Positions 7,216-10,625 of a DNA stretch of 10,803 nt are shown here, piece after piece; position 1 is the first letter of the stretch, and each line of letters opens with the position of its first letter. A program made the position numbers and the translations under genes. The notes beneath the pieces are model-generated. The model was given only the letters and a program-made list of their open reading frames with translations, did not search any database and had not been told where the DNA came from. The stretch spans positions 1-10,803 of the forward strand of contig JAYEOM010000097.1 in the NCBI GenBank assembly GCA_034722955.1, given 5' to 3'. This DNA comes from Campylobacterota bacterium. Its GTDB lineage: Bacteria > Campylobacterota > Campylobacteria > Campylobacterales > Sulfurovaceae.

Positions 7216-8376
7216 ATGAAAAATTTATTTGATGATATTAGAGCGAAAGGGCTAGATGATCTGGATATGAGAGTCTACACTTCACGGCTGCTCGGAAGTG
7301 ATCAGGATCTAGTGCTGCATGGAGGAGGTAACACCTCTGTCAAGATCGATGATATCCTCTATGTCAAAGGGAGTGGGTGGGATCTGGGCTCTATCGAAAA
7401 GGAGGGGTTCTCGCCAGCTAGGATGAGTGATCTGCTCTCACTGCTGAAGTATGAAAAGCTCAGTGATACTGATATGGTTCGTTATCAAAAAGAGGCTCTC
7501 ATAGACAAAAATGCCCCCAATCCTTCAGTAGAAGCGATCCTGCATGCCCTGATCCCTTATAAGTTTGTAGATCATACTCATGCAGATGCGATCGTGACGA
7601 TATCCAATACGGTGAATGGTGAGCAGTTGATAGAGGAGATTTATGGTGAGAACTATCTCATCATCCCCTATGTGATGCCTGGGTTTATATTGGCGAAAGT
7701 GATCGATGAGATGACACAGGGTGTGGAGTGGGAGAGTTTGGAGGGGATTATTTTGCACAACCATGGGGTATTTACTTTTGATAATGATGCCAAAGAGAGT
7801 TATGACAAGATGATAGCGACAGTTGCCAAAGCAGAAGAGTACCTAGGTGAGAATGCTCCATTGAGTATATCTGAGAGTAGAGAAGAGACTCCGTATGATA
7901 TAGAGAGACTCCAAGAGCTACTATCCAAATCAAAAGGCTATGATGTCGTCTTGAGACTCAACCAGTCATCACTGGCACAACACTTCGCTTCACAAGGAGA
8001 TGAGGGACTCTACCAAAAAGGGGTTTTAACTCCAGAGCACATCATCCGAACCAAACGCCTGCCTATACTGTTCGGAGGTGACTACAGAGCTGATTTGGCA
8101 TCTTATATGGAGAGTTATAGAGAGTATTTTGACCACTATAGCAGAGATGAGATCATGCTAAATACAACTCCAAATTGGGCAGTCATCCAAGGAGTAGGCA
8201 CTCTATCGATCGGCAAAAATGAGAAAGAGGCGATGATCATAGAGGATATCACCTCCCACACGATGAGAGCGATACTCCAAGGAGAAGAGTTAGGCGGCTA
8301 CCAAAGCATCTCAGAGTCTGATAGCTTCGAGATGGAGTACTGGGAACTCGAACAGATGAAGCTCAAAGGGAAGTAG
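7216..8376 (+). CDS. Class II aldolase/adducin-family protein (aldolase domain of RhaEW/YuxG-like bifunctional enzymes, no SDR domain)
   Basis: LVLHGGGNTSVK, YVKGSGWDL, PSVEAILHA, DHTHAD and HNHG (Zn ligands), TPEHIIRTK, EYWELEQMKL, then a stop. Confidence 0.88.
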   Translation: MKNLFDDIRAKGLDDLDMRVYTSRLLGSDQDLVLHGGGNTSVKIDDILYVKGSGWDLGSIEKEGFSPARMSDLLSLLKYEKLSDTDMVRYQKEALIDKNAPNPSVEAILHALIPYKFVDHTHADAIVTISNTVNGEQLIEEIYGENYLIIPYVMPGFILAKVIDEMTQGVEWESLEGIILHNHGVFTFDNDAKESYDKMIATVAKAEEYLGENAPLSISESREETPYDIERLQELLSKSKGYDVVLRLNQSSLAQHFASQGDEGLYQKGVLTPEHIIRTKRLPILFGGDYRADLASYMESYREYFDHYSRDEIMLNTTPNWAVIQGVGTLSIGKNEKEAMIIEDITSHTMRAILQGEELGGYQSISESDSFEMEYWELEQMKLKGK

Positions 8377-8398
8377 ATCTTAGTATAAAGGAGAAAAT

Positions 8399-9961
8399 AT
8401 GGCATACTTGATGACGATAGATGCAGGGACAGGGTCTGTTCGTGCGGTGATATTTGATGAGGCAGGCAGAGAGATAGCAGTTGGTCAGCATGAGTGGTCA
8501 CATTTGGCAGAGGAGGGTGTGGCGGACTCTATGGGGTTTGATTTTCGGACAAACTGGAAGATCACATCGCAGTGTATAGAAGAGGCGATCAGCAGTGCAC
8601 AGATAGATGCAGAGGATATCCTCGCAGTGACAGCTTCATCGATGCGTGAGGGTATCGTACTATATGATGCAGAGGGCGATGAGCTTTGGGGTGTTGCCAA
8701 TGTCGATGCTCGTGCTTCAGCAGAGGTGAGAGAGCTCAAAGAGAAGTTCCCAGATATAGAAGAGGAGTTCTATATGGAGTCGGGACAGACTTTTGCTCTG
8801 GGTGCTCTGCCTAGATTGCTCTGGGTCAAAAAACATAGACCAGATATCTATAAGAGAACTGCCAAACTCTCTATGATCAGTGATTGGGTTTTGGCTAAAC
8901 TCTCAGGAGTCATTGCTGCGGATCCTTCCAATGCTGGGACTACTGGGATATTTTCTCTCTCTAGTAGAGAGTGGGAGGTTGGGCAAGCTAGACAAGTAGG
9001 TCTCAAGGATGATATCTTCCCTCCTCTCTATGAGCCTTCAGAGGTCATCGGTGAAGTTACTAGAAGAGCGAGTAATGAGACTGGATTAGCCCAAGGTACA
9101 AGAGTAGTGATGGGTGGTGGTGATGTACAGCTCGGTTCGGCAGGATTGGGTGTGGTGCGAGAGGGTGAGAGTGCTATACTTGGTGGAAGCTTTTGGCAGC
9201 AGATCGTCAATATTGATGCTTCGGTTACTCCCCCTTCGGATATCTCTCTGCGTATCAATCCGCATGTGGTCGGTGGGTTGTCACAAGCTGAGGGGATCAC
9301 ATTTTTTAGTGGGCTAGTGATGCGTTGGTTTCGAGATGCTCTCTGTGATATCGAGAAGATAGAAGCAGATCGCAGAGGCGTTGATGTCTATGAAGTACTC
9401 GAAGAGATGGCCGCTAAAGTACCGGTAGGTTCTCACGGCATCATACCTATCTTCTCTGATGCGATGAGATATGGCAAGTGGTATCATGCCAGCCCCTCGT
9501 TTCTCAATCTAACTCTTGATCCATTGATCTGTAACAGAGCTAGCATGTTTAGAAGCCTTGAGGAGAATGCAGCGATCGTCTCAGCGATCAATTTGGAAAA
9601 TATCAGCTCTTTCTCGGGTATAGAGAGTGAGAGTTTGACCTTTGCAGGAGGAGCGAGCAGGGGTAGACTCTGGTCACAAATACTCGCTGATGTCACCGGC
9701 AGAGAGATCCGTATCCCCGTGGTCAAAGAGGCAACTTCCCTAGGGGGCGCTATGATGGCAGGGATCGGAGCCGGCATATACAGTGATATCGATGAGGTTG
9801 CAAAAGAGCTTGTCAAGTGGGAACGAACTGTTGAGCCAAACCGAGAGAACTATGCAAAATACCAAGAGATCAAAGAGCAGTGGCAGGAGATATATGCAGC
9901 ACAACTCAAACTTGTCGATCAGGGTCTATTGAGATCTATGTGGAAAGCACCAGGAGTATAA
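8399..9961 (+). CDS. lsrK: Autoinducer-2 (DPD) kinase, FGGY family
   Basis: YLMTIDAGTGSVRAVIFD, SMREGIVLY, ANVDARA, DPSNAGTTG, GGGDVQLG, FWQQIVN, WYHASPSFLNL, LEENAAIVSA and the C-terminal WKAPGV match enteric LsrK colinearly (from memory). SD AAGGAG at 8388-8393. Confidence 0.92.
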   Translation: MAYLMTIDAGTGSVRAVIFDEAGREIAVGQHEWSHLAEEGVADSMGFDFRTNWKITSQCIEEAISSAQIDAEDILAVTASSMREGIVLYDAEGDELWGVANVDARASAEVRELKEKFPDIEEEFYMESGQTFALGALPRLLWVKKHRPDIYKRTAKLSMISDWVLAKLSGVIAADPSNAGTTGIFSLSSREWEVGQARQVGLKDDIFPPLYEPSEVIGEVTRRASNETGLAQGTRVVMGGGDVQLGSAGLGVVREGESAILGGSFWQQIVNIDASVTPPSDISLRINPHVVGGLSQAEGITFFSGLVMRWFRDALCDIEKIEADRRGVDVYEVLEEMAAKVPVGSHGIIPIFSDAMRYGKWYHASPSFLNLTLDPLICNRASMFRSLEENAAIVSAINLENISSFSGIESESLTFAGGASRGRLWSQILADVTGREIRIPVVKEATSLGGAMMAGIGAGIYSDIDEVAKELVKWERTVEPNRENYAKYQEIKEQWQEIYAAQLKLVDQGLLRSMWKAPGV

Positions 9962-9963
9962 AA

Positions 9964-10341
9964 ATGCATTTAACTAGTGAAAACAACCATGACTACAGAT
10001 TTGGAACCCATGGCCCAAAATATCTGACCGATGGAACAAGCAATGTAGATATGGGTGTAGTAGTCATCACATCTGGAGAGTCGCACCCCTGTCATAAACA
10101 TACACAACAAGAGGAGTCATTTTTGGTACTAGAGGGAGAGTGTGAAGTGTGGGTAGACGGGGAACTTGTCATGCTGAAAAAGGGTGATTATCTTGTCTGC
10201 GAGAAGGGGGAGGCACACTTTTTTAGAAATGTCAGTGGTGAGGATTTTAAAGCAGCCTTTATCAAGGCACCCCGACTTGATTTTAAAGATAGTCTCTATA
10301 TCGAGTGGGAGCCAGGTAGAGTATTTCCAAAAGAGGATTAG
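9964..10341 (+). CDS. Cupin-domain metalloprotein (125 aa)
   Basis: HPCHKHTQQEESFLVLEGE ... GDYL ... GEAHFFRN cupin motifs. SD AGGAG at 9952-9956 supports the ATG at 9964, 2 bp after the lsrK stop. Confidence 0.88.
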   Translation: MHLTSENNHDYRFGTHGPKYLTDGTSNVDMGVVVITSGESHPCHKHTQQEESFLVLEGECEVWVDGELVMLKKGDYLVCEKGEAHFFRNVSGEDFKAAFIKAPRLDFKDSLYIEWEPGRVFPKED

Positions 10342-10625
10342 TCTAGACTGCTGAGATTGTGTGAATACTTCTCAGCGGTAAAGGGTTCAAAGTTGGCTTT
10401 GTAGTGTTTGTAGTGGTCTGAGTTTTTATGACCCTCTAGGGCATCATCATCTTTCCAGCTCTCCAAGACGACGAAAGTCGTTGGCTTGTCTGTCAATTGA
10501 TGAATATGGTAAAATAGACACCCATCCTCTGCTCGTGAAGCATCCACCATCGTGAGGAGTAGAGCTTTGAGCTCTTCTATATTCGTCTCTTTGGCAACAA
10601 ATTTAACCTGTTTTGTGATTGTCAT
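10338..10625 (-). CDS. ABM-family protein (putative quinol monooxygenase / LsrG fold)
   Basis: SRAEDGCLFY ... FVVLESWKDDDALEGHKNSDHYK ABM signature; SD AGGAG on the minus strand at 10631-10635. Confidence 0.88.
   Translation of the reverse strand: MTITKQVKFVAKETNIEELKALLLTMVDASRAEDGCLFYHIHQLTDKPTTFVVLESWKDDDALEGHKNSDHYKHYKANFEPFTAEKYSHNLSSLD

Follow-up and report, generated by a model that had tools for sequence, protein, structure and literature searches.

How could a bacterium that makes 4,5-dihydroxy-2,3-pentanedione (DPD), the compound behind autoinducer-2 (AI-2), dispose of it without the importer, the regulator and the terminal enzyme of the Lsr system? The question is raised by four neighbouring genes of a sulfur-oxidising Campylobacterota bacterium assigned to the Sulfurovaceae. 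These genes lie at positions 7216 to 10625 of the stretch of DNA analysed here (the window), which is the entire 10.8-kb contig C97 (JAYEOM010000097.1) of a genome of 2.5 Mb with a completeness of 99.97%. They encode a class II aldolase-family protein referred to as ALD (386 amino acids (aa); 7216–8376, + strand), a kinase of the LsrK type (520 aa; 8399–9961, + strand), a single-domain cupin (125 aa; 9964–10341, + strand) and a small protein of the antibiotic biosynthesis monooxygenase (ABM) fold (95 aa; 10338–10625, − strand). In enterics, as outlined in PMC8016206, LsrK makes phospho-DPD, LsrG isomerises this product, and LsrF moves the acetyl group to coenzyme A (CoA) and releases dihydroxyacetone phosphate (DHAP).

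Results from the analysis described below indicate that the module is real and conserved, most probably with an aldolase standing in place of LsrF, a substitution that rests on comparative genomics. It is fairly likely that the genes constitute an importer-less, cell-internal Lsr pathway for DPD with a non-homologous last enzyme. The most likely role of the module is to salvage or detoxify the cell's own DPD rather than to listen to neighbours, because neither an importer nor LsrR is present. The arrangement of the genes proposed in an earlier sequence-only reading, an LsrK gene in a run with a class II aldolase gene and a cupin gene that converges on an ABM gene, is confirmed by the open reading frames (ORFs) and by direct reading of the junctions. 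The ALD and LsrK genes are separated by 22 bp containing the motif AAGGAG, the LsrK and cupin genes by 2 bp, and the convergent cupin and ABM genes share 4 bp at their ends.

Distribution and gene order in Campylobacteria

The association of these genes was examined in a class sample of 401 Campylobacteria genomes. LsrK and ALD are each found in 50 genomes, 49 of which have both. The sole LsrK genome without ALD (G009) has a kinase gene cut by a contig end, and the sole ALD match among the 351 LsrK-negative genomes (G166) is weak, with 30% identity and two stop codons in frame. Each of the 49 genomes with LsrK and ALD also contains the ABM protein only (36 genomes), the cupin only (4 genomes) or both (9 genomes); none is without either. 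ABM orthologues are present in 45 of the 49 LsrK-positive genomes, including all 36 cupin-less ones that could be judged. They were recovered by a follow-up search in five genomes with incomplete loci, and the four genomes in which this search did not find one (G020, G160, G283 and G030) all carry the cupin. Of the 41 nearest relatives, 21 have LsrK and 20 do not; an ABM orthologue is encoded by 15 of the former and by 1 of the latter, a 93%-complete metagenome-assembled genome (MAG). The cupin is found in 13 of the 401 genomes, all of them LsrK-positive, and it adjoins LsrK in 11 of these carriers. The LsrK-positive genomes span at least nine families, and the module genes are often unlinked.

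Gene order was mapped with cluster-built hidden Markov models in flanks of approximately 7 kb to either side of 12 unlinked ALD genes and of 48 LsrK genes besides that of the window, giving 49 LsrK loci in all. ALD lies within 7 kb of the kinase gene in 34 loci and adjoins it in 26, while an ABM gene is found in 33 loci and adjoins ALD in 25. A same-strand ABM-ALD-LsrK run is present in 17 loci and is the usual operon in the relatives. Where ALD is located elsewhere in the genome, the ABM gene accompanies either ALD (L035, L036, L057 and L086–L089) or LsrK (L039, L046, L064 and L068). The cupin gene is directly 3′ of LsrK in 11 of the 49 loci. The neighbourhood also recurrently contains genes of the S-adenosylmethionine (SAM) cycle. 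The SAM synthetase gene metK is found in 8 loci (L032, L039–L041, L048, L051, L061 and L064), luxS is found in 5 loci (for example, in the order ALD-LsrK-cupin-LuxS-MetK in L061), and a MqnC/CofH-like radical SAM gene is 3′ of the kinase gene in 20. An initial view of the kinase gene as often isolated among housekeeping genes, taken from ±1.5-kb loci of 21 relatives, was overturned by the whole-genome profiles and the ±7-kb loci.

The kinase and the missing Lsr components

The kinase contains FGGY_N and FGGY_C domains and matches the NCBIfam equivalog model NF008187 ("autoinducer-2 kinase") at 853.7 bits, compared to a cut-off of 528, over residues 1–519 of 520. In a search of solved structures, Escherichia coli LsrK (5ya0) aligns with the kinase end to end (653 bits), and the next relatives are xylulose and glycerol kinases at approximately 108 bits. 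The kinase is also 55–57% identical to the annotated LsrK proteins of Enterobacter, Salmonella, Klebsiella and Sinorhizobium. Judged by these scores and alignments, the kinase of the window is a true LsrK. The model performs on Sinorhizobium (787 bits), and an E. coli genome included as a control gave no LsrK match over the cut-off and no LsrG match, the control strain evidently being one without an lsr locus. There is no second LsrK copy in the window's genome. A genome of the same genus (G013; contigs C92, C43 and C89) has two LsrK copies, at 851 and 846 bits, as well as two ABM copies that are 76% and 49% identical to the ABM protein of the window.

The absence of lsrACDB, lsrR and lsrF, which had been noticed within the window, holds for the whole 2.5-Mb genome. 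Profile searches of the genome gave no match to the DeoC family (PF01791), and therefore there is no LsrF. They also gave no match to Sugar-bind (PF04198) that would indicate a SorC/LsrR-type regulator, and no Peripla_BP_4 protein, so there is no LsrB or associated ABC importer. These absences extend to the 49 LsrK-positive Campylobacteria, none of which has a match above 31 bits to Enterobacter LsrF (the matches being partial at most) or a match over the cut-off of the LsrB model NF011937. The sections of Rezzonico and Duffy (PMC2561040) that treat the Epsilonproteobacteria likewise record no lsrB. The genome-wide search did locate luxS, on contig C63, and LuxS is encoded in 356 of the 401 Campylobacteria genomes, including all 50 that are LsrK-positive.

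The aldolase-family protein

ALD contains an Aldolase_II domain (PF00596; 70 bits, cut-off 22.2) followed by a conserved C-terminal domain of approximately 170 aa, and it has no dehydrogenase part. The sequence-only reading of this protein as a stand-alone class II aldolase needs refinement, as ALD is not a simple aldolase of approximately 210 aa. The bifunctional aldolase/short-chain dehydrogenase models NF006197 and NF006196 score ALD at 447 and 444 bits, compared to cut-offs of 627 and 831, respectively, with the NF006197 match covering profile positions 10–409 of 583. ALD falls outside this family, as the match stops at approximately position 400 and the short-chain dehydrogenase (SDR) domain is missing.

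An AlphaFold model of ALD, built from an alignment of 26 relatives, has a predicted local distance difference test (pLDDT) score of 93.4. Foldseek assigns the first 215 residues to the class II aldolase fold, with matches to 3m4r (E = 2.5e-20), FucA, AraD, YgbL and the 5-deoxyribulose-1-phosphate aldolase DrdA (6btd and 6btg), and it found no solved counterpart for the last 170 residues. A sequence and profile search of solved structures with ALD returned 3m4r alone, an uncharacterised domain. His120, His122, His183 and Glu106 are invariant among the 26 relatives and may correspond to the metal triad, that is, the zinc ligands, and to the catalytic Glu of FucA. With the HxH motif, the third His and the Glu retained in a confidently modelled class II aldolase fold, ALD looks like an active metalloenzyme. 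It is proposed that ALD substitutes for LsrF by cleaving isomerised phospho-DPD to DHAP and a C2 unit.

Candidate isomerases

The ABM protein is a clear member of its Pfam family (PF03992; 66.5 bits, cut-off 23.1), and it falls outside the LsrG family, as the LsrG model NF007791 scores it at 31.2 bits compared to a cut-off of 135. A profile of the ABM family finds the LsrG structure 3qmq at 34 bits and uncharacterised ABM proteins at higher scores (for example, PA3566 at 60 bits). The earlier description of this gene as an LsrG-fold partner of the kinase agrees with gene order in the relatives, where the ABM gene is usually first in the ABM-ALD-LsrK operon; membership in the LsrG family is not supported by score. 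By analogy, the ABM-fold protein is proposed to be a phospho-DPD isomerase that acts as a functional analogue of LsrG from outside the LsrG family.

The cupin (Cupin_2, PF07883; 62.9 bits, cut-off 27.2) has an HxH...E...H motif in which His44, His46, Glu50/Glu51 and His85 are invariant in eight sequences, leaving both metal motifs intact. Its closest solved relative is the N-terminal domain of Bacillus subtilis quercetin 2,3-dioxygenase (63 bits). LsrK is present in 56 of 65 cupin loci, and the cupin gene is at a contig end in 3 of the 9 exceptions. Named genomes with cupin loci include Sulfurovum, Nitratifractor, Arcobacter, Sulfurospirillum, Sulfurimonadaceae and other Campylobacterota, which identifies the class sample as one of Campylobacteria. 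Outside this group, Pleomorphomonas has the order lsrR-lsrK-cupin in a genome that also encodes LsrG at 134.5 bits (cut-off 135), a Deinococcus plasmid has lsrK-cupin, and a MAG titled Thiomicrospira cyclica (L131) has ALD-LsrK, an inserted gene for a 1200-aa Eco57I/MmeI-type restriction-modification protein (3398–7000) and then the cupin gene. A 5.4-kb MAG contig deposited under the label Francisella tularensis subsp. holarctica (L140) carries LsrK followed by a cupin that is 61% identical to that of the window.

These findings suggest that the cupin may be an accessory partner of LsrK and a candidate isomerase or dioxygenase whose substrate would be phospho-DPD or its isomer in the enediol form. 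Of the earlier suggestion that the cupin may replace or supplement LsrF or LsrG, the tie to LsrK is upheld, while its presence in 13 of 50 LsrK-positive genomes marks it as accessory. Simple replacement of LsrG by the cupin fits the four cupin-only genomes and was rejected as the whole story in view of the nine genomes with both proteins and the LsrG of Pleomorphomonas.

Occurrence in complete Lsr loci of Alphaproteobacteria

A protein search of plasmid records identified ALD homologues on pSymB of Sinorhizobium meliloti (41% identity). Annotation of this stretch with family profiles, which covered the ABM, lsrK, lsrR, lsrA, lsrD, lsrB and ALD genes, places an LsrG-like ABM protein (106 bits), LsrK (787 bits) and LsrR on one strand, and LsrA (730 bits), LsrD, LsrB (635 bits, cut-off 384) and a stand-alone ALD (NF006192, 479 bits) on the opposite strand. 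Plasmids of Thalassospira marina and Alloyangia pacifica, as annotated by the Prokaryotic Genome Annotation Pipeline (PGAP), have an lsrR-lsrK-"antibiotic biosynthesis monooxygenase" run that is divergent from lsrA-C-D-B-"class II aldolase/adducin family protein". In three alphaproteobacterial orders, ALD therefore fills the lsrF slot after lsrB of a complete Lsr locus. An Enterobacter plasmid has the canonical lsrACDB-lsrF-lsrG. The alphaproteobacterial operon is given as lsrBDCARKG, that is, with no lsrF, in the corresponding part of Rezzonico and Duffy (PMC2561040). The proposal that an aldolase replaces LsrF thus gains support from the co-occurrence of ALD with LsrK in 49 of 50 genomes, the lack of LsrF in 49 of 49 and the lsrF position of ALD in Alphaproteobacteria, all of which are comparisons of genes and genomes.

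Relationship to the DHAP shunt

The DHAP shunt, as presented in PMC12632272 and PMC6079011, consists of MtnK, MtnA and the class II aldolase Ald2. In seven Sulfurimonas-type genomes (loci L078–L084; G195, G328, G241, G414, G319, G272 and G294), the only ALD orthologue is a dehydrogenase fusion (ALD.SDR; 653 aa, NF006196 1020 bits) encoded after mtnK (TIGR01767, 490 bits) and mtnA. The same seven genomes have ABM and LsrK together elsewhere, often followed by metK, and the fused form adjoins LsrK in two further genomes (L056 and L064). In a quick tree, ten fused forms make up one clade (Shimodaira–Hasegawa-like approximate likelihood ratio test (SH-aLRT) 97) that is nested among the stand-alone ALDs of Campylobacteria, and three alphaproteobacterial ALDs form a distant sister group. 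One aldolase may serve two SAM-waste branches in the Sulfurimonas-type genomes.

The window's genome also has a run on contig C62 (approximately 9327–12565, L090) composed of mtnK, a DUF6868 gene, mtnA (NF004326, 421 bits) and a gene for a 208-aa class II aldolase-family protein, which by its gene content is a separate DHAP-shunt or methionine-salvage-like set. A 5-deoxyribose route via the FGGY kinase, prompted by the MqnC-like gene 3′ of the kinase gene in the 20 loci noted above, was set aside because the genome has this mtnK-mtnA-small aldolase set of its own.

Proposed pathway and alternative explanations

The genes suggest a pathway similar in outline to that of the enteric system. LuxS, which is encoded elsewhere in the genome, would free DPD whenever S-adenosylhomocysteine (SAH) is recycled. 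Next, LsrK would phosphorylate DPD at C5 in an ATP-dependent reaction to give phospho-DPD, as expected from its orthology to the enteric kinase. The ABM protein and/or the metal cupin would then shift the carbonyl to form 3-hydroxy-2,4-pentanedione-5-phosphate (P-HPD), a role assigned by analogy with LsrG and because of the fold, the linkage and the either-or pattern of the two proteins. Finally, in what is the least certain step, the metal of ALD would hold the DHAP end of P-HPD while the C3–C2 bond is broken to yield DHAP and a C2 product. Cleavage of a hydrate is expected because a plain retro-aldol reaction does not fit a β-diketone. The C2 product would most likely be acetate, formed via attack of water on the hydrate; in enzymes with the fused dehydrogenase, reduction could come first and acetaldehyde would be the likely product. 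The ALD step would take the place of the CoA-dependent thiolase LsrF.

Several findings weigh against this pathway. A retro-aldol enzyme is not obviously able to cut a β-diketone, such that a hydrate, another nucleophile or prior reduction is needed, and ALD could be an ordinary 5-deoxy- or 5-methylthio-ribulose-1-phosphate aldolase because its dehydrogenase-fused orthologue sits in seven genomes behind mtnK-mtnA, the setting in which the DHAP shunt handles 5-deoxyribose and methylthioribose. The score of the ABM protein is far under the cut-off for LsrG, the solved structures nearest to it are of uncharacterised ABM proteins, and its gene in the window is convergent and not co-transcribed. 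The cupin is missing from 37 of the 50 LsrK genomes, and its co-existence with a near-cut-off LsrG in Pleomorphomonas means that it is not simply an LsrG replacement. In addition, all genomes counted for co-occurrence belong to a single class and are related, so that the counts do not represent independent events, and LuxS is near-universal in this class, so its presence discriminates little.

Three other explanations have to be weighed against a cell-internal DPD pathway. The module could handle a different 5- or 6-deoxy ketose, such as 5-deoxyribulose from radical-SAM waste, or take part in rhamnulose- or fuculose-like catabolism, and "LsrK" would then be a misnomer for a kinase that acts on C1, with ALD performing a plain retro-aldol reaction to DHAP and an aldehyde, and the ABM protein and cupin serving as mutarotase and isomerase. 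This is consistent with the correspondence of ALD to the N-terminal half of RhaD-type aldolase/dehydrogenase proteins, its fold matches to FucA and DrdA, the seven genomes with fused orthologues after mtnK-mtnA and the use of a class II aldolase by the DHAP shunt as presented in PMC12632272 and PMC6079011. We nevertheless consider it quite improbable. The kinase is far over the equivalog cut-off, and its identity to the enterobacterial and rhizobial LsrK proteins is what is expected between those proteins themselves. The same type of ALD is found inside complete Lsr loci adjoining a high-scoring LsrB, and luxS or metK lies beside the module, in 5 and 8 of the 49 loci, respectively, one of which has both. 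Furthermore, contig C62 already provides the window's genome with a set of mtnK, mtnA and a small class II aldolase gene, and ABM-LsrK is retained in the genomes that have mtnK-mtnA-ALD.SDR, where it would amount to a superfluous second route for 5-deoxyribose.

Signalling is an unlikely purpose of the module, although the enzymes would then act as proposed: AI-2 from neighbours would enter by another carrier, and turnover of phospho-AI-2 would modulate some further regulator or quench the community signal. The same kinase controls a signalling circuit in enterics, as outlined in PMC8016206, and S. meliloti, whose locus is of the ALD type, has no luxS and imports foreign AI-2 according to the portion of Rezzonico and Duffy (PMC2561040) that covers this species. 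In contrast, the window's genome has no LsrB, LsrR-type regulator or Peripla_BP_4 protein, LsrB is over the cut-off in none of the 49 LsrK-positive Campylobacteria, and all 50 LsrK-positive genomes have luxS, with luxS or metK as operon neighbours in several. A chance association of the four genes, with no pathway in common, is hardly credible. Many kinase genes do appear isolated among housekeeping genes in the ±1.5-kb loci of close relatives, and the ABM gene of the window is on the opposite strand; however, whole-genome profiles agree even where the genes are unlinked, and the same pairings are seen again in Alphaproteobacteria, Deinococcus and the Thiomicrospira MAG.

A cell-internal DPD pathway can be extended to a broader and more tentative view, to which we give somewhat less than an even chance. 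LsrK, the ABM/cupin isomerase and ALD would constitute a third, unrecognised branch of salvage for SAM by-products, in which the kinase would originally have served LuxS-bearing autotrophs to salvage carbon from, and to detoxify, the DPD that they make themselves, the AI-2 import and signalling of enterics would be a later addition, and ALD would carry out a CoA-independent cleavage of a phosphorylated β-diketone. The sugars of methylthioadenosine and 5′-deoxyadenosine are processed via MtnK/MtnA, SAH-derived DPD would pass via LsrK/ABM, and all three would converge on one family of DHAP-yielding aldolases. P-HPD is the 4-oxo analogue of 5-deoxyribulose-1-phosphate, a DHAP-shunt substrate, which would explain the use of one aldolase family in both settings.

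Comparison with known systems and implications

The module resembles the enteric Lsr system (lsrRK and lsrACDBFG of E. coli and Salmonella) in its orthologous LsrK, in its small ABM-fold protein, which is proposed to be an isomerase like LsrG, and in the expectation of DHAP among the end products; in addition, the alphaproteobacterial ALD gene occupies the lsrF operon position. In contrast to the enteric system, the window's genome encodes neither an LsrACDB importer nor LsrR or LsrF, the ABM protein is placed outside the LsrG family by its score, and an additional cupin is present. ALD has the fold of a metal-dependent class II aldolase, whereas LsrF is a CoA-dependent thiolase with a class I (DeoC-type) fold.

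Likeness to the DHAP shunt and 5-deoxyribose salvage (MtnK/DrdK, MtnA/DrdI and Ald2/DrdA) lies in the order of events, wherein phosphorylation and isomerisation of a SAM by-product precede its cleavage to DHAP and a small fragment by a class II aldolase, and in the dehydrogenase-fused ALD orthologues behind mtnK-mtnA in the seven Sulfurimonas-type genomes. The two differ in the kinase (FGGY-family LsrK instead of MtnK), in the isomerase (an ABM or cupin candidate instead of MtnA) and in the substrate, which would be a diketone from SAH recycling and not a 5-deoxy-pentose; moreover, mtnK, mtnA and the gene for a 208-aa aldolase form a set of their own in the window's genome. With respect to the RhaD_aldol-ADH proteins (TIGR02632; NF006188–NF006197), ALD aligns along their whole N-terminal 400 residues, but it has no dehydrogenase half, is below every family cut-off and has no rhamnose genes nearby.

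AI-2 is often called a universal bacterial signal. There is a long-running argument, taken up in Rezzonico and Duffy (2008, PMC2561040), as to whether LuxS and DPD represent mainly a signal or a metabolic by-product in most species. The module offers a testable object for this argument, as the members of a free-living chemolithoautotroph clade make DPD and have a DPD kinase and a full candidate breakdown route, but have neither a known receptor nor a known importer or regulator. Attention is also drawn to an unassigned enzyme family that corresponds to the N-terminal half of "aldolase/short-chain dehydrogenase" proteins in stand-alone form and apparently does the job of LsrF without CoA, including in the well-studied Lsr locus of S. 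meliloti, and the module would link the catabolism of AI-2 to the DHAP shunt for other SAM wastes. The proposed last step, if true, is undescribed, while the system is otherwise of the Lsr type. A literature search found no publication that links LsrK in this way to a class II aldolase, or that links it to a cupin, "adducin" or the DHAP shunt, though papers on the rhizobial locus may mention the gene. The single match for LsrK and "class II aldolase", an LsrF structure paper, only defines the aldolase classes, and the query for LsrK and Campylobacterota was too unspecific to exclude a mention.

Other features of the window

Scans for regulatory signals were uninformative, with 13 promoter-like sites in the window compared to 8.9 ± 2.5 in shuffled sequences and 4 terminator-like sites compared to 3.7 ± 2.0. 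The gene upstream of ALD encodes a short SerB of 206 aa (6585–7205, + strand; TIGR00338 240 bits, cut-off 144) and is co-directional with ALD across a junction of 10 bp, also read directly. No genome outside the genus repeats the adjacency of SerB and ALD, which is seen again in G004 and G005, and SerB is probably a housekeeping gene that is a neighbour within this genus alone. The idea that the cupin cleaves an enediol to phosphohydroxypyruvate for the adjacent SerB found no support and was dropped because this SerB is the only one in the genome and is adjacent only within the genus.

The upstream part of the window encodes RhlE, a DUF6172 protein, two small ORFs and ArgG on the + strand, as assigned by ORF calls and family profiles. 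A methylenetetrahydrofolate reductase-like gene that resembles the C-terminal part of YitJ (5608–6618, − strand) is divergent from the SerB gene, and the two ORFs, as called, overlap by 34 bp at their starts.

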